The notes under the pieces were generated by a model, which did no database searches, was not told where the DNA came from, and was given only the letters and a program-made list of their open reading frames with translations. Made by a program: the position numbers and the translations under genes. From Alphaproteobacteria bacterium (lineage in GTDB: Bacteria; Pseudomonadota; Alphaproteobacteria; MPNO01), in assembly GCA_964291675.2 (NCBI GenBank), contig OZ219866.1, positions 1,056,001 to 1,120,000 of the forward strand: DNA of 64,000 bases, in the 5' to 3' direction. Shown here in pieces: positions 2,590 through 17,847 of this stretch (positions are counted from its first letter, which is position 1; every line of letters starts with the position of its first letter).

Positions 2590-2648
2590 TGCGGCGGTCT
2601 CTATTGTAATTGAAGTGTAATGACCGGCCCGGCATACGAGTTCCGGCG

Positions 2649-3080
2649 ATGCAACGCTCCTATACGCCGCTGATCGAGACGCTGAGGCGCCATGGCCTGC
2701 GCCCGACCCGCCAGCGCCTCGCGCTGGCCAAGCTGCTGTTCACCGGAGCCAACCGCCATGTCAGCGCCGAGCGTTTGCACGAGGAGGCGCTCGGCGCCGG
2801 GGCGAGCGTCTCGCTGGCGACCGTCTACAACACGCTGAACCAGTTCACCGCCGTCGGCCTGCTGCGCGAGGTGATCGTCGATCCCGACCGGTCCTATTTC
2901 GACACCAACACGGCCGATCATCATCACCTGTACTTCCAGGACACCGGCCGCCTCGAGGACATCGAGGCTGCGGAAGTGCGGATCGGCGAGCTGCCCGACC
3001 CACCGGCCGGGACGACGATCGCCAGGGTCGATCTGGTCATCCGCCTGACCGGCCGCCCGGACCGGCCCGGCGGTCGTTAG
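2649..3080 (+). CDS. irr: Iron response regulator Irr (Fur family)
   Basis: GLRPTRQRLALA, VSLATVYNTLNQF and YFDTNTADHHHLYF (His triad) are typical of alphaproteobacterial Irr; in-frame ATG at 2649. Confidence 0.9.
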   Translation: MQRSYTPLIETLRRHGLRPTRQRLALAKLLFTGANRHVSAERLHEEALGAGASVSLATVYNTLNQFTAVGLLREVIVDPDRSYFDTNTADHHHLYFQDTGRLEDIEAAEVRIGELPDPPAGTTIARVDLVIRLTGRPDRPGGR

Positions 3081-3092
3081 AACCATTCCAAC
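3076..3092. promoter_or_regulatory. Irr-binding iron control element (ICE) upstream of katG
   Basis: GTTAGAACCATTCCAAC matches TTTRGAAYNRTTCYAAA at 15 of 17 positions, is dyad symmetric, and lies immediately upstream of a TTGACC -35-like hexamer (3096-3101). Confidence 0.7.
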
Positions 3093-3164
3093 CTATTGAC
3101 CCTCATCGCCGACTCCCTGTAAATGTGCTCATCGGCGCCTGACGGCGGTGGCGCGAACGCATGA

Positions 3165-5432
<2,268 letters not shown>

Positions 5433-5463
5433 TCCCGCAGGCAGGGTACGAAGCTTCCAGTCC

Positions 5464-5499
5464 GCGGCCCGGCCGGCGATCGGCCGGGCCGCATTCTTT
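5464..5499 (+). terminator. Probable intrinsic terminator after katG
   Basis: 12-bp stem GCGGCCCGGCCG / CGGCCGGGCCGC followed by ATTCTTT. Confidence 0.55.
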
Positions 5500-5511
5500 G
5501 GGGGATTGCCG

Positions 5512-5934
5512 ATGGCGTTCAGCGCCTATCTGTTCTTCGACGGCGATTGCCGGGAAGCGTTCGAGCTCTACCGCTCGGTGTTCGGCGGCGAGTTCCAGGT
5601 GTTGCAGACCTTCGCCGACGGGCCGCCGGATCTCGGCGTGCCGGATTCGGAGAAGGACCGGATCATGCACGTCTCCCTCGCGGTCGGATCGGCCGTGCTG
5701 ATGGGCAGCGACCACTGCTCCGCCTTCGGCCCGCCGCCGGTCCGGGGCACCGACTTCGCGATCTCCATCGCCGGCGAGAGCAGGGAACAGTGCGACGAGA
5801 TGTTCGCCAGGCTGTCGCAGGGCGGCGAGGTCAGGATGCCGATGCAGGAGACCTTCTGGGGCGCCTATTTCGGCAACTGGACCGACCGCTACGGCGTCGG
5901 CTGGATGATCAGCTACGAGCTGCCGCGGGAGTAG
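5512..5934 (+). CDS. VOC/PhnB-family (glyoxalase-like) protein
   Basis: AYLFFDGDCREAFELY, IMHVSL, LMGSD and MPMQETFWGAYFG...DRYGVGWMI motifs. Confidence 0.9.
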   Translation: MAFSAYLFFDGDCREAFELYRSVFGGEFQVLQTFADGPPDLGVPDSEKDRIMHVSLAVGSAVLMGSDHCSAFGPPPVRGTDFAISIAGESREQCDEMFARLSQGGEVRMPMQETFWGAYFGNWTDRYGVGWMISYELPRE

Positions 5935-6104: not shown

Positions 6105-6437
6105 CTAGCCGAGTATGGCGGCGAGCCGGGCGAGCACGTCGTCGATGACGTGCTCCGGCACCGTGTCGACACGTCTCCCGTTCCTGGCGCCGAGGTCGAG
6201 GGCGCGAGGCTGGTCGCAGCGGATCACGCCCGTGGTGCGCGTGCCCGCGCCTTCCAGGGAAACCGCAAAACCTCGCCTGCGTGCGAAGTTCCCGCCGGTG
6301 GTGATGGGCACGACGACGGGCGTCCCGGTCAGCCGGTTGAACGCCTCGGGCGATACGATCAGTACCGGGCGGGTGCCCTGTTGTTCATGGCCGGCGGTGG
6401 GATCCAGGCTGACGAGCCAGATGTCTCCCCGCTTCAC
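6105..6437 (-). CDS. pemK: PemK/MazF-family endoribonuclease toxin
   Basis: KRGDIWLVSLDPTAGHEQQGTRPVLIVSP and TTGVIRCDQPRALD motifs; GTG start overlaps the antitoxin stop (TAGTG). Confidence 0.95.
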   Translation of the reverse strand: MKRGDIWLVSLDPTAGHEQQGTRPVLIVSPEAFNRLTGTPVVVPITTGGNFARRRGFAVSLEGAGTRTTGVIRCDQPRALDLGARNGRRVDTVPEHVIDDVLARLAAILG

Positions 6438-6691
6438 TACAACAGCTCGTTGCCGACCGGTCTGGCATCCAGCCAGGCCCGGTCGTCGTCGGAAGGAGCG
6501 CCCTCTTCGCACTGCGCCAGAAGCTCGTCGAGCGTGTAGCTCGGACGCGTCCTGGGTTCGACGATCAGGCGACCGTTCTCCACCGCGATATTCACCCTGG
6601 CCCCCACCCCAAGCTCCAGCAGATCGAGCAGCGCCGGGGGCACCGCGAGCATGACGGAACCGCCGACCCTGCGCAGATTCGTCGTATGCAT
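6437..6691 (-). CDS. pemI: PemI/Kis-like AbrB/MazE antitoxin
   Basis: MHTTNLRRVGGSVMLAVPPALL...PSYTLDELLAQC...WLDARPVGNELL; directly upstream of the toxin. Confidence 0.95.
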   Translation of the reverse strand: MHTTNLRRVGGSVMLAVPPALLDLLELGVGARVNIAVENGRLIVEPRTRPSYTLDELLAQCEEGAPSDDDRAWLDARPVGNELL

Positions 6692-6703
6692 GGGCGCCCC
6701 CTT

Positions 6704-6721
6704 GTTTTACAAAAATATAAC
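6704..6721 (-). promoter_or_regulatory. pemIK autorepression operator
   Basis: AT-rich imperfect 18-bp palindrome (GTTATATTTTTGTAAAAC on the minus strand) 12 bp upstream of the pemI ATG; resembles the parD/kis-kid operator repeats as recalled. Confidence 0.7.
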
Positions 6722-6831
6722 CGTGTCCGTCCGGTAAGGCAAATTCCCCCGGGCCATTCCGGGGCGCGGTTCGCCTGGCGGGCGAAATGCGCTAGCTTGC
6801 CGGGCTTCCGATTTCGAGGGGGAAGACGGCG

Positions 6832-7692
6832 ATGGACTGGACGAGGCGGCGCGAGCGCTACCGTGGGGTGCTCGAAGGCGGGGAGTGCATCCACCCGGGC
6901 TCGGTGTACGATCCGATCTCGGCCCGCATCGCCGAGGATCTCGGCTTCGAGGTCGGCATGTTCGCCGGCTCCATCGCCTCGATGACGGTGCTCGGCGCGC
7001 CCGACCTGATCGTCATGACGCTGAGCGAGTTCGCCGGCCAGGCCTACCGCATCTGCCGCGCCGGCGACCTCGCGCTGATGTGCGACGCCGATCACGGCTA
7101 CGGCAACGCGCTCAGCGTGATGCGCACGGTCGAGGAGCTGGAGGCCGCCGGCGTCGCCGCGTTCACCATCGAGGATACCGAGCTCCCCGCGCCCTACGCG
7201 GCCGACGGGCCGCGGCTGCTCACCCTCGACGAGGGTGTGGGCAAGATGAAGGCCGCGCTCGCCGCCCGCAGCGACAAGCGCCTGGCGATCGCCGGGCGCA
7301 CCAGCGCCGCCACCATCGCCGGCATGGACGAGGCGCTCGGCCGCATCGCGGCCTACGAGGCGGCCGGGGTCGACGCGGTGTTTCTCACCGGCATCAGAAC
7401 GAAGGCCCAGGTCGAGGCCGTCGCCGCGACCGTGGACATCCCGGTGATCCTCGGCGCGGCGGGGCCGGAGATCCAGGACCTCGACTATCTGGCGGCCAAC
7501 GGCGTGCGCATCTGCCTGCAGGGGCACCAGCCCTTCATGGCCGCCGTCCGGGCGGTGCATGCGACGCTGAAGGCGCTGCGCGCCGGCACGCCGGCCGCCG
7601 AGCTCGAGGGGGTGGCCTCGCCCGAGCTGATGCGGACCGTCACCCGCGACGGCGACTACCGGCGCTGGATCGAGGACTATCTCGGCGGATGA
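6832..7692 (+). CDS. Isocitrate lyase/PEP mutase superfamily protein, oxaloacetate decarboxylase-like
   Basis: SVYDPISARIAEDLGFE, DADHGYGNALSV and TIEDTELP motifs; lacks the PepM EDKxxxxxNS motif and the ICL/PrpB KKCGH motif. Confidence 0.85.
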   Translation: MDWTRRRERYRGVLEGGECIHPGSVYDPISARIAEDLGFEVGMFAGSIASMTVLGAPDLIVMTLSEFAGQAYRICRAGDLALMCDADHGYGNALSVMRTVEELEAAGVAAFTIEDTELPAPYAADGPRLLTLDEGVGKMKAALAARSDKRLAIAGRTSAATIAGMDEALGRIAAYEAAGVDAVFLTGIRTKAQVEAVAATVDIPVILGAAGPEIQDLDYLAANGVRICLQGHQPFMAAVRAVHATLKALRAGTPAAELEGVASPELMRTVTRDGDYRRWIEDYLGG

Positions 7693-8879
7693 CTTCGCGC
7701 CGCCATGCCGAGATCGCGGGCGCCGGATTCGCCGGGCTGGTCGCCGCCATCGCGCTCGCCGACCGCGGCTGGACCGTCCGGGTGCATGAGCGCGCCGATG
7801 CGCTTCGCGCCTTCGGCGCCGGCATCTTCATCTGGGAGAACGGGCTCCGGGTGCTGAAGGCGATCGGCGCCTATGACGATGTGCTTGCCGGCTCGCATGA
7901 CGGCGAGGTGTACGAGGTCCGCGACCGCGACCGGGTGGTCGTCGAGACCGCGTTCAACCGCGCCATGGGCAGCCGTATGCTGACCATGACCCGCCAGACG
8001 CTGTACGCCGCGATCCTCGGCCAGGCCGAGCGCCGCGGCATCGAGATCCTGACCCGCTCCGAGGTCGTCGGCGCCGAGCCCGCGGGCGTGCTGCTGACCG
8101 CCGGTGGCGGGCGTCACGCGGCCGATCTCGTCATCGGCGCCGACGGCGTGCACTCGCGGGTGCGGGACTCGCTGGGTTTGCAGAAGGAGCGCGACACCGG
8201 CACGCTCGGCCTGGTCCGCGTGCTCGCCCCGCGCTGCCTCGACGAGCTCGGCCCCGGGCGCTGGGACCGGGTGATCGATTTCTGGAACCTGCCGCAGCGC
8301 TCGCTCCGCATCCTCTACGTGCCCTGCAACGCCGACGACCTCTATCTCGCGATGATGGCGCCGGTCGAGGACGCAGAGGCGACCGCAATTCCGGTGCGCG
8401 CCGATATCTGGGTGCCGGCCTTTCCCCAGCTCGAGCCGGCGATCCGCCTTCTGTCGGCCGAGGGGCGCTACGACGCCTACGAGACCGGCAAGCTCACGCG
8501 CTGGTCGCAGGGAAGGGTGGCGATCGTGGGCGATTCCGCGCACGCCATGGTGCCCTCGCTGGGCCAGGGGGCGGGGCTCGCGATGGCCAACGCGCTCGGC
8601 CTCGCCGTCGCGCTCGACGAGGTTCCCGACATCGCCGATGCGCTCGCCCGCTGGGAGGCGCGGGAACGGCCGCGCACCGAGCGCACCCAGGACCTGTCCG
8701 CCAGGATCGCCCGCGACCGGCTGGAGACGGCCGGGCGGATCTGGTCGGACGAGACGACTCGAACCGCTTGCAGCGTGCCGACCGGCACCGAACACCTGCC
8801 GCACGGTGTCGACGGCTTGCCAGATGCCCCACAGTCGCGGCTTGATGGCCGGGACAGGGCGATGCGGACGGGAGGGTGA
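7689..8879 (+). CDS. FAD-dependent oxygenase, 2-methyl-3-hydroxypyridine-5-carboxylate oxygenase (MHPCO)-like
   Basis: AEIAGAGFAGL, LRAFGAGIFIWENGLRVL, GADG, WDRVIDFWN, RILYVPCN, RYDAYET and GDSAHAM.P.LGQGAG resemble recalled MHPCO sequence end to end; ATGA overlap with the upstream gene. Confidence 0.8.
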   Translation: MTSRRHAEIAGAGFAGLVAAIALADRGWTVRVHERADALRAFGAGIFIWENGLRVLKAIGAYDDVLAGSHDGEVYEVRDRDRVVVETAFNRAMGSRMLTMTRQTLYAAILGQAERRGIEILTRSEVVGAEPAGVLLTAGGGRHAADLVIGADGVHSRVRDSLGLQKERDTGTLGLVRVLAPRCLDELGPGRWDRVIDFWNLPQRSLRILYVPCNADDLYLAMMAPVEDAEATAIPVRADIWVPAFPQLEPAIRLLSAEGRYDAYETGKLTRWSQGRVAIVGDSAHAMVPSLGQGAGLAMANALGLAVALDEVPDIADALARWEARERPRTERTQDLSARIARDRLETAGRIWSDETTRTACSVPTGTEHLPHGVDGLPDAPQSRLDGRDRAMRTGG

Positions 8880-8882
8880 ACC

Positions 8883-10049
8883 ATGCGCCGCTACGATGCG
8901 CTGGAGGCGATCGCGCCCAGGGTGGGCGACGCCCTGGTGGTGACCAACCTCGCCAACACGGCGACCGAGTGGCGCACGCTGCGCCCGCATGACGGCAATC
9001 TCTACTTCGTCGGCATGGGGATGGTGACGCCCTACGCGCTGGGGCTCGCGCTCGCCCTGCCGCATCGCCGCGTGCTCGCCTTCGACGGCGATGGCGGCAT
9101 CCTGTTCGAGATGAGCGTGCTGGGGACGCTCGCCCAGTCGGCGCCGAAGAATCTCTGCGTCGTGGTGCTCGACAACGAGGGCTACGTCTCGACCGGCAAG
9201 TGGCAGTCGGTCGCCTCGTTGTCGGCCGGGCCGGTCGACATCGCCGGCGTCGCGCGCGCCTCGGGGCTTGCCAATGTCTCCGAGGTGTCGACGGTCGAGG
9301 CGTTCGAGGCCGAGGTCGCTTCCGGGCTCGCGCGCGAGGACGGGCCGACCGTGATCGTCGCCAAGACCAGCGTCGAGCAGGCCTTCGTCGGCACCTCGCC
9401 CTCGGACGGCAAGGAGAACAAGTACAGCTTCGTCCGCCATGTCGAGGGGCTGGAGGGCAAGGCGATCCTCAAACCGTCGGCGCGCGAGCACGGCGAGCCG
9501 CCGAGGCCCGACCCCGAGTTCAGCCCGGTGGGGGACGACGATGCGTTCGGCGAGGTGCTGTTCGACGGGCTGCGCGAGAATCTCGTCGATTTCGTGATCG
9601 GCCTGCCGTGCAGCGGCTTCGCGCACACGCTGCAGCGCTGCATGGACGACCAGTCGATGCACTACGTCGCCGTCGCCAACGAGGGCACCGGGATCGGCAT
9701 CTGCGCCGGCGCCTGGCTCGGCGGCAAGACGCCGGCTGCGGTGATCGAGAATTTCGGCGTCTTCGCCGCGACCTACCAGCTGATGCGCGGGCACTACACC
9801 TTCGGCATCCCGACGCTGCTGATGACCGAGTACCGGGGCGACGGCGGCGAGACCGAGTTCTTTGGCGATTGCGGCGACATGACCGAGCCGCTGTTGCAGG
9901 CGACGCGGATCAACTACCGCGTGGTGCGCGACATCCACCAGCTCAAGCCGGCGATCCGCGACGGGCTGAGATGGATGAATTTCGGCCTCCGCCCCTACGC
10001 CGTGCTGCCGGGCTACGACCTGTCCCGGCCCCGGCCGCCGAAGGGCTAG
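8883..10049 (+). CDS. TPP-dependent decarboxylase, ComE-ComD (beta-alpha) fusion, sulfo-/phosphonopyruvate decarboxylase-like
   Basis: N-half has GDGG...DN (PP domain, ComE-like); C-half has DFVIGLPCS...ANEGTGIGICAGAWLGGK (PYR domain, ComD-like). Confidence 0.85.
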   Translation: MRRYDALEAIAPRVGDALVVTNLANTATEWRTLRPHDGNLYFVGMGMVTPYALGLALALPHRRVLAFDGDGGILFEMSVLGTLAQSAPKNLCVVVLDNEGYVSTGKWQSVASLSAGPVDIAGVARASGLANVSEVSTVEAFEAEVASGLAREDGPTVIVAKTSVEQAFVGTSPSDGKENKYSFVRHVEGLEGKAILKPSAREHGEPPRPDPEFSPVGDDDAFGEVLFDGLRENLVDFVIGLPCSGFAHTLQRCMDDQSMHYVAVANEGTGIGICAGAWLGGKTPAAVIENFGVFAATYQLMRGHYTFGIPTLLMTEYRGDGGETEFFGDCGDMTEPLLQATRINYRVVRDIHQLKPAIRDGLRWMNFGLRPYAVLPGYDLSRPRPPKG

Positions 10050-10122
10050 GTGTGTTGCGCAAGCTCCTCCGCTCGAGGTCGGCCCAATACGCGATCTCTC
10101 TGGCCACGCCCTTGCCACAACT

Positions 10123-10217
10123 CGTCATGCCCGGACTTGTTCCGGGCATCTCTCTCCGCAAGGCGCGCCCGATGCGGGGCAAGCGCGTGGATGGCCGGAA
10201 CAAGTCCGGCCATGACG
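10123..10217. repeat. CGTC-type palindromic repeat, family B (paired inverted units)
   Basis: 28-bp inverted arms CGTCATGCCCGGACTTGTTCCGGGCATC / GATGGCCGGAACAAGTCCGGCCATGACG. Confidence 0.85.
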
Positions 10218-10278
10218 GGTCAGGGGTCCTCGACGTACGGATCGTGACTTCTCGAACAGGCCTCCAGGGAATGCCCCG

Positions 10279-11001
10279 ATGATCTTCGAATGCCGCCGCT
10301 ATACCCTCCAGCCCGGGCGGATGGGGGATTTCATCGCGCTCCAGCACCGGCGCGGCTTCGACGGGCCGAATGCCGGGTTCATCTCTCGGGTGATCGGCTA
10401 TTTCGAGACCGTCACCGGAACGCCCGAGCAGATCGTCCACCTCTACCGCTACGACAGCCACGCCGACTGGATCGAGAAGCTGCACGGGCTCTATGCCGTC
10501 CCCGAGCTCGCCTTCTACTTCACCGAGGCGCGGGCGATGGTGGACCGCCAGGAGACCAATTTCTTCCAGCCCGCCCCGCTCGCCGAGCTCTGCCCGCTGT
10601 GGCACGGCGAGACCGACTGGCTGCCCGGGCCGGGGCGGGAGCGCTGGGATCTCGGCGACATGCCCGACCTGGTGGTCGAGGAGACCCTGGAGGCGCTTAA
10701 GCCCGGCGGGCTCGTGGCCTACTGGCAGGCGATGGAGGCGTGCGGGCTGGAGGCCACGGCGCCGCTGCGGCGCGACACCTTGGCCACCTGGTGGTCGATG
10801 ACCGGGCGGCTCCACGTGGTCGCCTCGTATCGCCTGTTCGCGTCGCTCGCCGAGCGCGAGCGCTGCCGGCGCGAGGCCGCGGACGGCGCCGCGATGGCGG
10901 CGTTCGACGCGGCGCTGCGGCCGATCCTGCGCGAGCGGACGACCACCCTGCTCCGCCCCGTGCGCGTGCCCCAGATGAGCCCGATGTTCCGCCTCGGCTG
11001 A
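10279..11001 (+). CDS. Tandem NIPSNAP-domain protein
   Basis: MIFECRRYTLQPG...IGYFETVTGTPEQIVHLYRY, and a second unit LKPGG...WWSMTGRLHVV...SLAERERCR. Confidence 0.8.
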   Translation: MIFECRRYTLQPGRMGDFIALQHRRGFDGPNAGFISRVIGYFETVTGTPEQIVHLYRYDSHADWIEKLHGLYAVPELAFYFTEARAMVDRQETNFFQPAPLAELCPLWHGETDWLPGPGRERWDLGDMPDLVVEETLEALKPGGLVAYWQAMEACGLEATAPLRRDTLATWWSMTGRLHVVASYRLFASLAERERCRREAADGAAMAAFDAALRPILRERTTTLLRPVRVPQMSPMFRLG

Positions 11002-11027
11002 GGCGAATTTCCCGGCAGCGCAGCCGA

Positions 11028-11144
11028 GGGCGTCCTTCGATACGCCCCCTTCGGGGGCTACTCAGGATGAGGGAGGGCTATTGCGGCCGTCCGACACCTC
11101 ACCCTCATCCTGAGTAGCGGCGAAGCCGCGTATCGAAGGACGCC
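11028..11144. repeat. Palindromic intergenic repeat family A, copy 2
   Basis: Inverted arms GGGCGTCCTTCGATACGCCCCCTTCGGGGGCTACTCAGGATGAGGG / CCCTCATCCTGAGTAGCGGCGAAGCCGCGTATCGAAGGACGCC. Confidence 0.85.
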
Positions 11145-12502
11145 TACCCCATCGTCCGCGGCAGCCAGAGCACGATGCCGGGGAAGGCGAGCAGCACGCC
11201 GACGGTGATCACGTCGGCGACGAAGAACGGGCCGATGCCGCGGAACACGTCCTGCAGCGGGATGGCGAGCGAGCGGCCCTCGGCGTCGCGCAGCTCGCGC
11301 GAGACCCCCGCGACGACGAAGCAGTTGAGGCCGATCGGCGGGGTGATCAGGCAGATCTCGGCCATCTTGACGACGATGATTCCGAACCAGATCGGGTCGT
11401 AGCCGAGCGCGACGACGGCCGGGAAGACCACCGGCAATGTGAGCACCAGCATGCCGATCGCATCCATGAACATGCCGAGCACGGCATAGGCCAGCAGGAT
11501 GCAGATCATGATCAGGATCGGCGGCATGTCGAGCGTGACCACCCAATCGGCGAAGGCGCTCGGCAGCCCGGCGAAGCCGAGGAAGCGGACGAACAGGAAG
11601 ACGCCCCAGATCAGGGTGAAGATCATCACCGTGAGCTTCGCCGTCTCCATCAGCGCCTCGTGCAGCCGGCCCCGCATCTCGCCCAGCGCGCGCTCGCGCC
11701 AGGCGCGGAGCGCGTAGAAGCAGAACACCACCATGGCGCCGAGCGCGCCCGCCTCGGTCGGGGTCGCGGCGCCGGTATAGAGCGCGCCGAAGATGACGCC
11801 GACGACGATGAAGATGGGGAGCGTCCCGGGCAGGCTCGCGAAGCGCTGCCGCCAGGTGAAGCCGGCGATCGGCCGGCCGAGCTCCGGGCGGAGCCTGCAC
11901 ATGCCGACGATCAGCGCCGCATAGATCAGCGCGGACACGATGCCCGGCAGGAAGCCGGCGAGCAGCAGCCGGCCCACCGATTCCTCGACGATGATGGCAT
12001 AGACGACGAGGATCGCGGACGGAGGGATCAGCGATGCCAGGGTCCCGCCGGCGGCGATCACGCCGGCGGTCAGCCGCCGGTCGTAGGCGTTGCGCAGCAT
12101 GTCCGGGATGGCGACGCGGGAGAACACCGCGGCCGTCGCCGTCGAGGCGCCGGACACCGCGGCGAAGCCGGCGGTGGCGAACACGGTCGCCACCGCGAGC
12201 CCGCCCGGCACCCAGCCGAACCAGCGCCGCGCCGCCTCGAACAGCCGCGAGGTGAGCCCGGCATAGAAAGCGAGGAAGCCGATCAGGATGAACAGCGGCA
12301 GCACCGAGAGCGGGTAGGTGACGGTCTTGGAATGCGGGATGGTGCCGGCGATGGCGCCCGCGATGTCCCAGTTCTTGAGCGCCAGCAGACCCAGGAAACC
12401 GGTCAGCGCGGCGGCGACGAAGACGCGGACCCCGATGACCACCATGACAATCAGCAGGCAGACGCCCAGAATGCCGATGGAGAAGTTGTCGAGGCCGAGC
12501 AT
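11144..12502 (-). CDS. dctM: TRAP transporter large permease DctM
   Basis: Multi-TM protein with AAVSGASTATAA, GTLASLIPPS, TPTEAGALGA and ITPPIGLN motifs. Confidence 0.95.
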   Translation of the reverse strand: MLGLDNFSIGILGVCLLIVMVVIGVRVFVAAALTGFLGLLALKNWDIAGAIAGTIPHSKTVTYPLSVLPLFILIGFLAFYAGLTSRLFEAARRWFGWVPGGLAVATVFATAGFAAVSGASTATAAVFSRVAIPDMLRNAYDRRLTAGVIAAGGTLASLIPPSAILVVYAIIVEESVGRLLLAGFLPGIVSALIYAALIVGMCRLRPELGRPIAGFTWRQRFASLPGTLPIFIVVGVIFGALYTGAATPTEAGALGAMVVFCFYALRAWRERALGEMRGRLHEALMETAKLTVMIFTLIWGVFLFVRFLGFAGLPSAFADWVVTLDMPPILIMICILLAYAVLGMFMDAIGMLVLTLPVVFPAVVALGYDPIWFGIIVVKMAEICLITPPIGLNCFVVAGVSRELRDAEGRSLAIPLQDVFRGIGPFFVADVITVGVLLAFPGIVLWLPRTMG

Positions 12503-12504
12503 CG

Positions 12505-13104
12505 CTAGCGGCCCCCTTCGCGCGCCTGGCCGATCTCCTCGGCCGCCGCCTGCTCCACGTCCTTCAGCAGCGGCACCGCCACCGGCTCGCTACCGGGACG
12601 AGCTGCGAGCCGGAGATAGCCCGCCATCTGTACCGCGAGCCGGACCAGCAATACGGCAAGCGCGACCGGAACCACCAGCTTGGCCGGCCAGGTGACGATC
12701 TCGATGTCGATGGTGGAATCGCCGAAATCGAAGGCGCGTTCGAAATGGCGGTAAGAGTAGGGGATCAGCACCGCGACGATGAACATGGCGAGCGCCGTGC
12801 CCACCGCCTCGGCGATCCAGAGCGCGCGTCCCCGGAAGCGGGCGACGACGAGCTCCATGCGCACATGACCGCCGACCCGCTGGACGAAGGCGATGGCGAG
12901 CACGGCGAAACCCACCATCGACACCTCGACGATGTCGATATAGCCGAAGATCGGGCTGCGGAAGACGGTGCGCAGCACGATCTGCGCGACGCCGAGCAGC
13001 ATCAGCGCGAAGATCAGCAGCCCGGCCAGCAGGTTGAGCCGGTTCTCCACCCGGCCGAGCCACAGATCGGCCCGCGCGAGGGCGCGGCCAAGGGCATCGC
13101 TCAT
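12505..13104 (-). CDS. dctQ: TRAP transporter small permease DctQ
   Basis: Four TM segments and GGHVRMELV motif; lies between dctP and dctM. Confidence 0.92.
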   Translation of the reverse strand: MSDALGRALARADLWLGRVENRLNLLAGLLIFALMLLGVAQIVLRTVFRSPIFGYIDIVEVSMVGFAVLAIAFVQRVGGHVRMELVVARFRGRALWIAEAVGTALAMFIVAVLIPYSYRHFERAFDFGDSTIDIEIVTWPAKLVVPVALAVLLVRLAVQMAGYLRLAARPGSEPVAVPLLKDVEQAAAEEIGQAREGGR

Positions 13105-13162
13105 GACACGGATCCGCTCGGGGCCCCGGGCCCGGTGCCGGACCCGGGGTCTTCGCGAGCGT

Positions 13163-14194
13163 CTAGTAGGTCTTGCCTACCGCCTTGAAGATGGTCTGGA
13201 TCACGCCCCGGGCGTCGAACTTGCCCTGGTTGTCCTCGATCCAGGCCTCGATCACCGGCTTGCCCCCGGCGGCGCGGAACCTGGCGAGCTGATCCTCGGA
13301 GTAGCGGACTTCCTTTAGCTTCTTCTTCAGCATCGGCAGGTTCTTCTTGTCCATCGTGACATAGGCCCGGATCTGGGTCTCGATCACGTCCTCCTTCGCG
13401 TCGTCCAGCAGCTTCCTGTACTGCGCGGGCAGCGCTTCATAGGCCTTGATCGAAAACGCCAGCGGGCAGTCCGACGTGCCGGGCGAGAGGTTGGCGGTGT
13501 ACCAGTCGGCCACCTCGTGGATCTTGTAGGCGACATGCGCGTAGGTGAAGGGAAAGGATGCGGCGTCCATCGTCCCCTGCTGCACGCCGGTATAGACCTC
13601 GGTGGCGGTCGAGGTCGTCGGCGTTGCGCCGAGCACCTTCATCGCGCGGGCGACGCCGCCGCCGGCGCGCACCGTCAGCCCCTTCCAGTCGGCGAGCGTC
13701 GCCGGCGGCTTGCCCTTGCCCAGGAACTCGTATTGCGGCAGGTAGGACGACACGTAGGTCATCGCGTTCCACCTGGCGAGCTCCTTCTTCACCGCCGGGT
13801 GGGCGTAGACCGCGTCGCGGATCTTGCGGTTGTTGCCCCAGTCGCCCATCGGCAGGAACGGCATGGTGAGCGACATCAGCGCCGGGTTCTTCTTCGGGTG
13901 GTAGAAGTTGCAGAACATCGCCGCCTGGAACGCATCCACCGAGAGCCCGTCGAGGTTCTCGCGCGATTTCGACAGCGCCCCGCCATAGTGCAGCTTGATG
14001 GTCCAGTTGCCGCCGGTCTTCTCGGCGACCAGCGCGGACAGCCGCTCGACGCCGGCCGTGAACGCGCGCTTCTTGCCCCAGAGCGAGACATCCCAGTTGA
14101 GCTTCGGCCCGTCCACCTCGGCCGCCTTGGCTCCGGCCGCGGCGAAGCCGATCGCGGCGAGCAAAGCGAGCCCCGTTGCACCGATTCTCCTCAT
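13163..14194 (-). CDS. dctP: TRAP substrate-binding protein DctP
   Basis: Signal peptide MRRIGATGLALLAA..., DWKGLTVRA and EVYTGVQQGTMDAA motifs. Confidence 0.93.
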   Translation of the reverse strand: MRRIGATGLALLAAIGFAAAGAKAAEVDGPKLNWDVSLWGKKRAFTAGVERLSALVAEKTGGNWTIKLHYGGALSKSRENLDGLSVDAFQAAMFCNFYHPKKNPALMSLTMPFLPMGDWGNNRKIRDAVYAHPAVKKELARWNAMTYVSSYLPQYEFLGKGKPPATLADWKGLTVRAGGGVARAMKVLGATPTTSTATEVYTGVQQGTMDAASFPFTYAHVAYKIHEVADWYTANLSPGTSDCPLAFSIKAYEALPAQYRKLLDDAKEDVIETQIRAYVTMDKKNLPMLKKKLKEVRYSEDQLARFRAAGGKPVIEAWIEDNQGKFDARGVIQTIFKAVGKTY

Positions 14195-14317
14195 GGCACC
14201 TGATCTCCCTTGTCCATTGACCCCCAATTTAGACCGTTTCACCGGGAAGTCGACTGCCAGCCCGCATTGTCGGCCGGACAGCGCCGCGCAGGCCATGACA
14301 GTGGCGGGAAATGCGGG

Positions 14318-15325
14318 CTAGGCGAGCGCCGGCATCACGTGGCGGGCGAACAGCTCGACCGAGCGCGTGGTCTCCTCGCGCGTCAGGTCGCCGAACGCCA
14401 TCTGGCCCACCATGTAGTTGGCCTCGGCGACCGCCATGCGCTCGGCGAGGACGGCGGCGACGGTATCCGGGCTTCCCGCCACCGCGCGGCCCTGGCCCGC
14501 CATCTCGTCGAAGCTCGGCGGGCGCCGGTGTTTGGGCAGCGGCGCGTCGTGAAGCACGAACAGATAGTTGAAGCTGCGGTGCCAGACCGGATAGGCGCGG
14601 CGCGCGGACGCCAACGCTTCCGCATCGCTCTCGCCCACCACCACGAACATGCCGAGCCCGACGAGGCCGGGCGCGCTGTCCGCGCCATGCGCCTCGGCCC
14701 AGGTCGACCGGTAGCTGCGCGCGAAGGCGCCGGTCTCCTCGGCGGTATCCAGGCTCACGATATGGCTCCCCATGCGCGCCGCCCGCGCCGCGCTGTCGGT
14801 GGCATGCACGCCGTACCAGAGCGGCGGGTGGGGCTTCTGGTAGGGCTCGACGAAGAGCGGGGTGTCGTCGAAGCTCGCGTATTTTCCGCGGTGGTGGAGC
14901 CTGCCGTTGGCGAGCCCGTCGAGCACGATGTCGAGATACTCGCGGTAGATCGGCTCGGCCTCCGCGTGGTCGTTGCCGAAATAGGACGCCTCGATGGGTG
15001 ATGCGCCGCGGCCGAAGCCGATCTCCAGCCTTCCGCCGCTCATCTGGTCGAGCATGCAGATCTCCTGCACCAGGCGGAGCGGGTGGTAGAGCGGCAGCGC
15101 GTAGACCAGCGGGCCGAAGCGGAGCCGCTCGGTGCGCATCGCCACCGCGCTGAGGAACAGATTGGGCGACGGCGCCATGCCGAGCGGCGTCGAGTGGTGC
15201 TCGGCCACGTGGTAGCTGCGGAAGCCCGAGCGCTCGAACAGCCCGATCAGCGCCAGACGGTCGGCGTAGTATTCGTCGAGCGGCTGGCCGGTCGCGTCGA
15301 GATGGTCGAAGATGCCGAATTCCAC
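14318..15325 (-). CDS. LLM-class flavin-dependent oxidoreductase
   Basis: EFGIFDHLD, VAEHHSTPLGMAPSP, LDQMSGGRLEIGFGRG and PYQKPHPPLW motifs; GTG start. Confidence 0.92.
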   Translation of the reverse strand: MEFGIFDHLDATGQPLDEYYADRLALIGLFERSGFRSYHVAEHHSTPLGMAPSPNLFLSAVAMRTERLRFGPLVYALPLYHPLRLVQEICMLDQMSGGRLEIGFGRGASPIEASYFGNDHAEAEPIYREYLDIVLDGLANGRLHHRGKYASFDDTPLFVEPYQKPHPPLWYGVHATDSAARAARMGSHIVSLDTAEETGAFARSYRSTWAEAHGADSAPGLVGLGMFVVVGESDAEALASARRAYPVWHRSFNYLFVLHDAPLPKHRRPPSFDEMAGQGRAVAGSPDTVAAVLAERMAVAEANYMVGQMAFGDLTREETTRSVELFARHVMPALA

Positions 15326-15412
15326 GCGTTTTCCCTTCCCGCCCCCGCAGCCGCCGGGGATTGTTGCAGGCGGCCGCGCAACCATCAATCATGGCGCGAC
15401 GGAGGATCCGAC

Positions 15413-16482: not shown

Positions 16483-17847
16483 ATGACAGGCTACGACCCG
16501 AAGACACATTCCCTTATCACCTTCCACGACCGCGTGGCCGCGTTCCGCGACGGCGCGGACACGCCGCGCGACCTGCTTGAGCGCTGCATCGCCGCCATCG
16601 AGGCGCGCGAGGACGAGATCATGGCCTGGGCCCATCTCGATCTCGACGGTGCGCGCAGGGCGGCGGATGCGGCGGGCGCGCGCTACCGGGAAGGCAGGCC
16701 GCTGTCGCCCGTCGACGGGCTGCCCATCGGCATCAAGGATTTGATCGACACCGTCGACATGCCGACCGAGTACGGCTCGACCCTGTTCGCCGGCCACCGC
16801 CCGAAGCAGGATGCGGCGGCCGTGCTCGCGCTAAAGCAGGGTGGGGCAGTCATTCTCGGCAAGACGGTGACGATCGCCTTCGGCGGCGGCGACCCGGCCA
16901 GGACCCGCAACCCGCACGACACGCGCCGCACGCCGGGCGGCTCGTCGAGCGGGTCCGCCGCCGCGGTCGGCGCGGCCACCGTCCCGGCCGCCATCGGCAC
17001 CCACGCGCGCGGCTCGACCGTCCGGCCTGCGAGCTTCTGCGGCGCCTTCGCGCTCAAGCCGAGCTTCGGGGCGATCAACCGCCAGGGCGTGTTCTCCGCC
17101 GCCGACAGCATGGACCATCTCGGCACCTTCGCAGGCTCGCTCCGCGATGTCTGGATCGTCGCCCGCCACATGGCGCGGCTCGCCGGCGGCGACCCCGGCC
17201 ATCCCGGGCTCTACGGCGGCGCCGCGCCGCCCGCGCCGCAGAAGCCGATGCGCCTGGTGCGGCTGGGGATGGCGGGCTGGGCCGAGACCGACGATGCGAC
17301 CAAGACGGCCTTCGAGGAGATCGTGGCGGGCCTCGCCGCGTCGGGGGTCGAGATCTTCGCCAAGGGCGACGATCCGGCGATCGACGACTACGAGGCCCGG
17401 CTCGCGGCGATGCCGGAGCTGTGGCGCGACCTCTACCGCTTCGAGATGCGCTGGCCGATGCTGCAATATCTCGCGCTCTACCCCGACGACGTGCCGCCCA
17501 GGCTCAAGCGCGGGCTGGAGGAGGGGGCGGGGCTCACCCAGGAGACCTACCGCGCGGCGCTAGTGCAACGGGCCCATGTCAGGAACCTGCACGGCGAGCT
17601 CGCCAACCGGGCCGACGGCTTCGTGACGCTCGCCTCGCCCGGCCCCGGCCCGGTCGGGATGGACCAGGGCAGCGCGGTGTTCAACGAGCCGTCCTCGGTG
17701 CTCGGCGCCCCGGCCGTGTCGCTCCCCTTGATGGCGGTCGACGGCGCGCCGGTCGGGCTCCAGCTCATGGGCCGCATCGGCGGCGACGAGGCGCTCGCCG
17801 CCTGCGGCCTGTGGGTGGCCGAGCGGGTGCTCGGGCGGGGGGTCTAG
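16483..17847 (+). CDS. Amidase-signature family enzyme
   Basis: GIKDLID, TPGGSSSGSAAAV and GSTVRPASFCG (Ser-cisSer-Lys triad). Confidence 0.92.
   Translation: MTGYDPKTHSLITFHDRVAAFRDGADTPRDLLERCIAAIEAREDEIMAWAHLDLDGARRAADAAGARYREGRPLSPVDGLPIGIKDLIDTVDMPTEYGSTLFAGHRPKQDAAAVLALKQGGAVILGKTVTIAFGGGDPARTRNPHDTRRTPGGSSSGSAAAVGAATVPAAIGTHARGSTVRPASFCGAFALKPSFGAINRQGVFSAADSMDHLGTFAGSLRDVWIVARHMARLAGGDPGHPGLYGGAAPPAPQKPMRLVRLGMAGWAETDDATKTAFEEIVAGLAASGVEIFAKGDDPAIDDYEARLAAMPELWRDLYRFEMRWPMLQYLALYPDDVPPRLKRGLEEGAGLTQETYRAALVQRAHVRNLHGELANRADGFVTLASPGPGPVGMDQGSAVFNEPSSVLGAPAVSLPLMAVDGAPVGLQLMGRIGGDEALAACGLWVAERVLGRGV

Follow-up and report, generated by a model that had tools for sequence, protein, structure and literature searches.

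A four-gene operon with an MHPCO-family oxygenase and two decarboxylase-type enzymes in a Defluviicoccus-like alphaproteobacterial genus

We analysed a cluster of plus-strand genes that begins at position 6832 of a stretch of 64,000 nucleotides of alphaproteobacterial DNA (the window; G000:C2:1056001-1120000, G+C content ~68–72%) and that encodes an ICL-family enzyme (P0001), an MHPCO-family oxygenase (P0002) and a decarboxylase-type enzyme dependent on thiamine diphosphate (ThDP) (P0003). Together with a following gene for a tandem-NIPSNAP protein, these genes form an operon of four. The operon is real, it is fixed in a Defluviicoccus-like genus, it is derived, and it brings known enzyme families together in a combination for which we found no description; among the papers listed by our literature searches, none dealt with an oxygenase associated with two decarboxylases of these types, and no paper on pyridoxine in Defluviicoccus was found. 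As to its function, we favour, with a probability of roughly 0.45, the reading that the operon may be a derived catabolic module for an imported compound that resembles a 3-hydroxypyridine-carboxylate.

Operon layout and protein families

The three enzyme genes lie head to tail in open frames at 6832–7692, 7689–8879 and 8883–10049. The stop codon of the first (TGA, 7690–7692) and the start codon of the second (ATG, 7689–7691) are interlocked in an ATGA overlap of 4 nt, and the stop codon of the second (TGA, 8877–8879) is followed after a gap of 3 nt by the ATG of the third at 8883, immediately 5' of which stands the motif GGGAGGG. The overlap and the short gap imply that the trio is translated in a coupled manner. 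All three frames are open throughout and each gives a strong match to its family. An initial annotation made from the letters alone had named the same three families and the same tight coupling, and both were borne out by our matches and by the reading of the junctions. It had, however, taken the operon to consist of three genes only and had overlooked the fourth, which encodes the tandem NIPSNAP-domain protein of 240 aa (10279..11001, plus strand; PF07978, 72.8 bits, in two stretches). It is found behind the ThDP gene in all 10 trio loci whose sequence extends to this point, and also at locus L020, where the other two enzyme genes are lacking. A search of the PDB with the NIPSNAP protein matched uncharacterised NIPSNAP proteins only.

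In the window, the third and the fourth gene are separated by a spacer of 229 bp (10050..10278), which blastn identifies as a dispersed repeat with 160 matches in the genome and a core at ~10121–10219. The spacer has inverted-repeat arms and a depth of 30–100x that of its flanks. The insertion is found between the ThDP and NIPSNAP genes in this genome only; in the relatives, the gap between the aligned ends amounts to 0 to ~36 bp, and contigs from three public runs link position 10037/10042 straight to 10275, skipping the spacer. A promoter and terminator scan of 6400–11300 gave nothing informative, with one promoter-like site directed toward the upstream mazE-like gene and one weak terminator-like site within the first gene, and no regulator gene was seen around the operon.

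P0001 (286 aa, 6832..7692, plus strand) belongs to the ICL/phosphoenolpyruvate (PEP) mutase superfamily (PF13714, 124.9 bits) and is of the oxaloacetate-decarboxylase type. It matches PDB 3b8i, the oxaloacetate decarboxylase PA4872 of Pseudomonas aeruginosa, with 239.5 bits over residues 7–284, compared with at most 99.7 bits for all other solved members of the superfamily; over its full length it is closer to PA4872 than to the other branches. All NCBIfam equivalog scores fall well short of their cut-offs (prpB, 133.2 vs 354.4 bits), and an identity as PEP mutase was rejected on a TIGR02320 score of 73.4 bits against a cut-off of 319.55. The motifs DADHGYGN and IEDT of PA4872 are kept, as is the His aligned with His235, but an Ala occupies the position aligned with Tyr212; both PA4872 residues are presumably catalytic. 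PA4872 is reportedly a Mg-dependent beta-decarboxylase of oxaloacetate and 3-methyloxaloacetate, and to our knowledge the physiological role of enzymes of this type has never been settled. What distinguishes the P0001 gene from that of PA4872 is its translational coupling to a flavin oxygenase, together with an accessory and patchy occurrence across the family. Orthologues with 77–93% identity lie directly 5' of the oxygenase gene in 11 loci.

P0002 (396 aa, 7689..8879, plus strand) is a group A monooxygenase dependent on flavin adenine dinucleotide (FAD). MHPCO (EC 1.14.13.242), the enzyme from which its family takes its name, hydroxylates its substrate (MHPC or 5-hydroxynicotinate) and cleaves the pyridine ring. 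P0002 matches PF01494 with 82 bits and the MHPCO of Mesorhizobium loti (PDB 3alj) with 346.2 bits over residues 4–354, the next-best family being 6-hydroxynicotinate 3-monooxygenase with 93.5 bits. The translation contains the motifs GAGFAG, GADG and GDSAH, and P0002 thus combines close similarity to the M. loti enzyme with the features of the group A flavoprotein class. In the alignment, the M. loti residues Tyr82, Arg211, Tyr223, Tyr270 and Pro295 are identical in P0002 (Y75, R207, Y219, Y264 and P289), and a Val is aligned with Cys294. The residues other than Tyr82 and Tyr223 presumably have roles in MHPCO as well. Y219 is invariant in 96 of 96 alignment rows and position 75 holds Tyr in 79 of them; an excerpt of PMC6180312 describes Tyr223 and Tyr82 of MHPCO as important for deprotonation of the substrate. 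Family, length and FAD motifs therefore liken P0002 to M. loti MHPCO. It is set apart by the exchange of Cys294 for Val, by the lack of B6-pathway neighbours and by an extra C-terminal tail of ~20–40 aa (residues ~355–396), which is poorly conserved and rich in Arg, Gly and Asp. With this tail the oxygenases of the window's genus reach 383–396 aa, compared with ~375 aa for the outside relatives, which lack it.

P0003 (388 aa, 8883..10049, plus strand) is a fused ThDP decarboxylase of the sulfo-/phosphonopyruvate-decarboxylase family. This family label had already been given; that the domain order is swapped had been missed. PF02775 matches residues 39–159 (70.3 bits) and PF02776 residues 222–296 (25.3 bits), and the single chain runs from a PP domain (1–186) over a connector (~175–204) to a PYR domain (225–375). 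The best NCBIfam match, phosphonopyruvate decarboxylase TIGR03297, gives 144.7 bits and has its best stretch with profile positions 171–359 on residues 1–186; as the equivalog cut-off of 312.5 is not reached, we rejected this identity. The sulfopyruvate decarboxylase profiles score 115.4 vs 221.5 for the beta subunit (TIGR03846) and 74.8 vs 147.95 for the alpha subunit (TIGR03845). The beta-like part occupies residues 3–186 and the alpha-like part 225–375, which reverses the alpha-then-beta order of ComDE, and with both scores at about half of the cut-offs and the order reversed, P0003 was rejected as a ComDE sulfopyruvate decarboxylase as well. RhiEF (PDB 9iz3) is matched in the same swapped way, its beta chain 9iz3_B on residues 1–114 and its alpha chain 9iz3_A on 223–375.

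The residues GDGG 69–72, D97, N98 and E267 are invariant in all 38 aligned members of the P0003 family, and the ~30 residues of the connector (175–204) are nearly invariant in the same alignment. We take GDG-X(n)-N to be the ThDP/Mg motif of the PP domain and the Glu to be the catalytic residue of the PYR domain; P0003 has both of these general marks of a ThDP enzyme. An AlphaFold model (mean pLDDT 88.8, pTM 0.92) finds its domain-level fold matches in single domains of the split enzymes AzcBC and RhiEF. The top Foldseek match of the PYR domain is AzcB/AzcC, with a target TM of 0.87–0.89 at 23–24% identity, and the whole chain aligns best to transketolases, which are likewise built as PP-then-PYR. 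With ThDP as cofactor, ComDE, Ppd and AzcBC remove the alpha-carboxyl group of 3-substituted pyruvates or alpha-imino acids. With ComDE and the phosphonopyruvate decarboxylases (e.g., RhiEF, PDB 9IZ3) P0003 has in common both ThDP domains, the ThDP motif and the catalytic Glu, but it differs in carrying PP before PYR in one chain with a conserved connector, where the known enzymes have PYR (alpha) and then PP (beta). With the alpha-imino acid decarboxylase AzcB/AzcC (PDB 9U8Q–9U8S) it shares the PYR fold and a sequence match. AzcB/AzcC, in contrast, is a split two-subunit enzyme from a biosynthetic context in Streptomyces, and the likeness is one of domains that does not discriminate between substrates. 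Because AzcBC belongs to the same ThDP family (title of PDB 9u8q), the chemistry of the family extends to N-containing acids. Our search for literature on the ThDP-dependent imino acid decarboxylase AzcB/AzcC found none.

The P0003 family comprises 228 matches at E ≤ 1e-10. Identities among the 120 listed are 58–94%, most of these proteins have ~385 aa, and their source names are 'sulfopyruvate decarboxylase TPP-binding subunit', 'hypothetical' and 'thiamine pyrophosphate-dependent enzyme'. The protein atlas places P0003 only in a 'hypothetical protein' cluster of its own and in generic ThDP or phosphonopyruvate decarboxylase clusters. The family is conserved and distinct, and it is without a characterised member. 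In the same genome, the sulfopyruvate-decarboxylase-like ThDP family is further represented by five ordinary split alpha/beta pairs (e.g., G000:C2:3400470-3401571 and 1170374-1171446) and two lone beta-like genes, a marked family expansion.

Distribution and descent of the gene trio

We scanned one genome per species and obtained 25 loci with a P0003 relative, the gene content of which was typed by tblastn. Eleven of them, with ThDP proteins 89–98% identical, have all three enzyme genes (ICL, MHPCO, ThDP) arranged as in the window, and the end of the ICL gene coincides with the start of the MHPCO gene. One locus (L016) has MHPCO plus ThDP, one (L020) ThDP plus NIPSNAP, and the remaining 12 have the ThDP gene only. 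A search of 20 genomes of the family found the trio adjacent in 12 of the 12 genomes of the window's Defluviicoccus-like genus. Its recurrence in 11/25 loci and 12/12 genomes, two sets that overlap largely and are not independent, means that the arrangement exceeds chance. Within the genus the block stays intact while both flanks are rearranged, with a mazEF pair present, absent or inverted on one side and either TRAP or amidase genes on the other. The initial annotation had left room for the outcome that the three genes never co-occur elsewhere; since the trio recurs, this is not the case, although the recurrence is confined to the genus and sister genera hold pairs or single genes only.

Fifteen of the 20 family genomes have a ThDP orthologue, and an MHPCO orthologue is present in all 15. 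In G408 the MHPCO gene (74%) adjoins the ThDP gene (78%) and there is no ICL orthologue. G405 has an ICL gene in two pieces, then a binding-protein gene on the opposite strand and then MHPCO (72%), with 1.2 kb between ICL and MHPCO; another contig of this genome (L020) carries ThDP plus NIPSNAP beside cyclase-family and acyl-CoA-synthetase-type genes. These two genera thus add the pairs MHPCO-ThDP and ICL-MHPCO, each with its order kept. In G407, MHPCO (71%) lies behind TRAP genes in one operon (L047); 1.3 Mb away, ThDP (74%) is part of another (L052), which reads dctP-dctQ-dctM-ThDP-cyclase-LLM, LLM standing for luciferase-like monooxygenase. Binding proteins of the TAXI or TRAP type adjoin the orthologues in G405 and G407. 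In G406, MHPCO (71%, one internal stop) is found with VOC and alpha/beta hydrolase genes, a ThDP gene is missing, and the ICL orthologue (66%) lies elsewhere with another hydrolase, for which we obtained no PDB match, and a GMC oxidoreductase. Of the trio genes, the oxygenase alone is present in G404 and G403 and the ICL gene alone in G402, and G401 lacks all three. As a side observation, a gene of the cyclase/kynurenine-formamidase family (PF04199) accompanies the ThDP orthologue both in G407 (L052, 7719–13823) and in G405 (L020, 6120–10489), where the cyclase is divergent from a ThDP-NIPSNAP-AMP-binding enzyme series. A partner of the formamidase type would suit a pathway in which ring fission yields an N-formyl product.

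For P0002 we found 2343 relatives at E ≤ 1e-40. Among 21 metagenome loci with an oxygenase 63–75% identical, 15 have an adjacent two-domain VOC gene, 12 a class II aldolase-family (Mlr6791-like) gene and eight an alpha/beta hydrolase gene, often along with NMT1-type binding proteins, ABC transporters and LysR regulators (the scan covered 51 of the 90 open reading frames (ORFs) called; the contigs L062 and L063 are nearly identical). The Mlr6791-like gene of these outside relatives matches Mlr6791 itself (PDB 2z7b) with 178.4 bits. We built a quick maximum-likelihood tree from 96 rows of oxygenases, with SH-aLRT as its only measure of support; in it, the 11 trio rows form one clade (SH-aLRT 99) nested among the other members of the family, and the family rows all fall inside a clade of 32 rows (SH-aLRT 99) that also holds the VOC/aldolase-associated loci. 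Rows with a match of <300 residues or a stop were dropped, so that L009, L011, L048 and L055 are absent from the tree. From the nested position of the trio clade it follows that the trio arrangement is a single derived state. The usual partners of the oxygenase, namely VOC, Mlr6791-type and alpha/beta hydrolase genes, are gone in the genus, where genes of the ICL and ThDP types are found instead. In the window's genome, no match to the VOC partner was obtained at E ≤ 1e-10, and the sole Mlr6791-like gene, 40% identical, belongs to a separate operon 50 kb beyond the window. There (G000:C2:1168386-1172592; L134, 8387–12593) a LysR gene is divergent from an operon of class II aldolase-family, split ThDP alpha/beta and mandelate-racemase/enolase-family genes.

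Two further MHPCO paralogues are present in this genome at G000:C2:1642010-1643011 (L004) and 1728717-1729712 (L005); they are 49% and 42% identical and conserved in the genus. One stands with a molybdenum hydroxylase, a 2-oxoglutarate oxygenase, amidohydrolases, a maleate-isomerase-like protein and RidA, the other between a cupin and a Rieske/VanA-type oxygenase, and around neither was a B6-like cluster seen.

The survey of relatives also brought out a widespread conserved cluster (L058, L062–L077, L127, L132 and, in G406, L048), in which an oxygenase relative is joined by a divergent two-domain VOC gene, an Mlr6791-like decarboxylase and a hydrolase; an ABC transporter, together with a binding protein of the NMT1 type, and a LysR regulator are further members. 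The cluster has the look of a separate, uncharacterised pathway for a hydroxypyridine-carboxylate, and our MHPCO-centred literature searches found no description of it. The neighbouring hydrolases were tried and rejected as AAMS hydrolase, as they match meta-cleavage-product hydrolases best (79.5 and 78.5 bits) and AAMS hydrolase is not among the matches listed.

Proposed function and competing explanations

Our favoured reading of the operon as a catabolic module is inferred from the chemistry of the enzyme families. With NAD(P)H and O2, P0002 would introduce a hydroxyl group into an already hydroxylated ring and, as MHPCO does, probably open it. P0001 would remove, in a Mg-dependent manner, a carboxyl group from an oxaloacetate-like beta-keto acid, and P0003 would decarboxylate a 3-substituted pyruvate-like alpha-keto or alpha-imino acid, with all four proteins presumably serving one shared pathway. 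A nearby amidase could free an N-acyl group. One may speculate that a ring of the 5-hydroxy-pyridine-2,3-dicarboxylate type is opened and deacylated to an oxalosuccinate-like 3-substituted oxaloacetate, which P0001 and P0003 would then decarboxylate. An equally open alternative is that P0001 acts in place of an Mlr6791-type decarboxylase and would produce the substrate of the oxygenase. We consider it doubtful that the operon encodes, more specifically, an undescribed route for hydroxypyridine di- or tricarboxylates in which an MHPCO-type ring opening, followed by deacylation, yields a 3-substituted oxaloacetate as a 2-imino/2-oxo acid, and in which removal of the beta-carboxyl by P0001 and of the alpha-carboxyl by P0003 replaces the chemistry of the class II aldolase-type decarboxylase and the hydrolase. 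A known parallel is the lower part of the vitamin B6 degradation pathway I of M. loti with Mlr6791, MHPCO and AAMS hydrolase, in which a decarboxylase likewise accompanies an MHPCO-type oxygenase. In the window, however, the decarboxylases come from the ICL/PEP mutase and ThDP superfamilies, and the operon has no hydrolase.

The catabolic module is favoured by the tight coupling of the genes, by a block conserved across the genus while its flanks change, by the pairs in sister genera, by the MHPCO orthologue in every family genome with a ThDP orthologue, by the kept catalytic residues of P0002 and P0003, by the similarity of P0001 to PA4872, by the derived place of the trio clade among loci with other partners, by the lack of close orthologues of those partners in this genome, and by the alpha-imino acid chemistry known from the ThDP family. 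Several observations weigh against it. The missing hydrolase gene is one of them, and ring opening by P0002 is not assured, given that KnmB1 and CaeB6 (see below) are hydroxylases. The genes are separable in sister genera (G403, G404, G406, G407). Of 400 other alphaproteobacterial genomes, 10 contain MHPCO-like genes (18 matches), and beside the 15 of these matches covered by 14 stretches neither a PA4872-like nor a permuted ThDP gene was found. A P0002 relative is present at 80 metagenome loci, but just two of these have the trio, and both are 86–91% identical and clearly of the same genus; in the other 78, many of them with short flanks, the ICL and ThDP genes were not found. None of the 12 ThDP-only loci has the trio. 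Outside the trio, P0003 relatives stand in varied contexts, usually with a solute-binding protein: the neighbours at the 14 non-trio loci, for which the 60 nearest of 106 called ORFs were scanned, include TctC in six, NMT1 or phosphonate-type binders in four, metallo-beta-lactamase-fold proteins in three, and TauD and DUF1989 in two each. Finally, the 12 trio genomes are close kin, so that the shared order may reflect simple descent. A further locus, L033, has ICL and ThDP alpha-domain matches of ~30% identity at 7–9 kb from an MHPCO-like gene and was treated as unrelated.

Some of these observations feed the explanation that survives best beside ours, in which the four genes are co-transcribed but belong to different pathways. 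The oxygenase would act, for instance, on a heteroaromatic acid and the ThDP and NIPSNAP proteins on an unrelated imported 2-oxo acid, their adjacency being an accident of the lineage that was kept by descent. Such a mosaic would agree with the close kinship of all trio genomes, with phyletic patterns that differ from gene to gene, with the different partners that the genes have in sister genera, with the mostly lone ThDP genes beside a solute-binding protein elsewhere, and with the ThDP-NIPSNAP pair that does without the other two genes in L020. It fits less well with the coupled translation implied by the junctions, with a block that remains whole in every one of the 12 genomes despite rearranged flanks, and with the ICL-MHPCO and MHPCO-ThDP pairs that keep the same order in two more genera. 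We judge a mosaic to be unlikely, yet it is the alternative to be taken most seriously.

Somewhat more improbable still, in our view, is that P0002 is a hydroxylase only, which would add an OH group to a hydroxypyridine or a phenolic acid and leave ring fission, if there is any, to enzymes encoded elsewhere. An excerpt of PMC9838390 reports that KnmB1 and CaeB6 are 45–55% identical to MHPCO and yet plain pyridine hydroxylases. The nearest outside relatives of P0002, moreover, occur almost always with two-domain VOC proteins and meta-cleavage-type hydrolases, a pattern of hydroxylase, extradiol dioxygenase and hydrolase. Against this, the same excerpt states that the catalytic residues of MHPCO could not be identified in KnmB1 and KnmB2 (PMC9838390), whereas P0002 has kept them, and the VOC partner that the pattern calls for has no match in this genome at the threshold given above.

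Two explanations we hold to be very improbable. In the first, P0002 would be a plain MHPCO, and the operon would encode the last part of an ordinary B6 degradation whose other genes lie elsewhere. M. loti MHPCO is indeed the strongest characterised relative, and its active-site residues are kept. Among the scanned ORFs of window positions 1–21236 (27 were chosen for the Pfam scan), however, neither an Mlr6791-type decarboxylase nor an alpha/beta hydrolase lies beside P0002, in line with the initial annotation, which could not recognise the usual B6 partners there, and a class II aldolase gene was not found among them either. The genome's only Mlr6791-like gene keeps company with LysR, a split ThDP enzyme and an enolase-family gene as described above, and the two other paralogues lack a B6-like cluster. 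Furthermore, M. loti MHPCO scores almost equally with P0002 (346 bits) and with a member of the VOC/AldII clade (354 bits), which suggests from these scores that it probably lies outside the clade of P0002; 'plain MHPCO' is then not the best label for P0002.

The second places the operon in organosulfonate or phosphonate metabolism, with P0003 as a true sulfopyruvate or phosphonopyruvate decarboxylase and P0001 as its PEP-mutase-type partner; the best NCBIfam matches of P0003, the JGI label 'sulfopyruvate decarboxylase TPP-binding subunit' on its relatives, the TauD and SsuA/NMT1-type binding proteins beside some family members and a true xsc gene for sulfoacetaldehyde acetyltransferase in the genome (C2:2279284-2281008, 946.5 bits, above the cut-off) speak for it, but P0003 reaches only about half of the cut-offs with its domains in reverse order, P0001 stays far below the PEP mutase cut-off and is far closer to PA4872, xsc is 1.2 Mb away, and the five ordinary split alpha/beta pairs could do the job.

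Surroundings and biological meaning

Downstream of the operon, the TRAP transporter genes dctM, dctQ and dctP (11144..14296, minus strand, with the DctP protein at 13163–14296; Pfam DctM, DctQ and DctP) converge on it. Their adjacency, from which the initial annotation had drawn a possible feeding of the pathway, is correct for the window but not constant: besides the window, TRAP genes adjoin the operon in three of the 10 assessable genome loci (L007, L012 and L013) and in one metagenome contig (L054), and the other seven carry in their place an amidase paralogue, 35–38% identical and on the opposite strand, directly after NIPSNAP. The TRAP transporter is accordingly a variable neighbour of the operon, and it is possible that it feeds the operon's pathway. 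Next to it lies a gene for an LLM (14318..15388, minus strand; PF00296, 159.1 bits), for which an association with the operon is possible; in G407, too, the ThDP operon (L052) contains or adjoins LLM genes, and others are located close to the MHPCO orthologues of L046 and L048. The amidase-signature amidase of the window (16483..17847, plus strand; PF01425, 206.1 bits) is a possible candidate for hydrolysis of an N-acyl ring-fission product. The region beyond the TRAP and LLM genes holds, besides this amidase gene, a VOC fragment and the genes for an SDR and an amidohydrolase.

On the upstream side, a mazF/pemK-like toxin gene (PF02452, 108.4 bits) and a mazE-like antitoxin gene occupy positions 6105–6691 of the minus strand directly before the operon; the pair is present in some relatives only and is inverted in L006. 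Farther upstream (2610–5934) lie genes for a fur-family regulator, katG and a small VOC-family (YjdN-like) protein, and katG is found 5' of the trio in eight of 11 trio loci.

Public runs labelled 'sponge metagenome' hold pieces 85–99% alike to window positions 6700–11100, and one of these runs is metatranscriptomic. The fraction of sampled words of the stretch was 0.61 in one run and at most 0.31 in the others. An RNA library (X20) yields contigs for each of the 30 bins of the stretch, a coverage that does not show transcription.

If our model fails, the operon would be a lineage-specific mosaic of known enzyme families. If the catabolic module is real, it would represent a non-orthologous replacement within an N-heterocycle catabolic module and would open a first way to the function of two poorly understood groups, the permuted ThDP decarboxylase family and the PA4872-type enzymes. 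Should the more specific di- or tricarboxylate route be true, the permuted ThDP family would even constitute a new functional class of 2-oxo/2-imino acid decarboxylases. In addition, the analysis exposes the far more widespread cluster of MHPCO-like, VOC, Mlr6791-like, hydrolase and NMT1 genes, which occurs in soil and other metagenomes.

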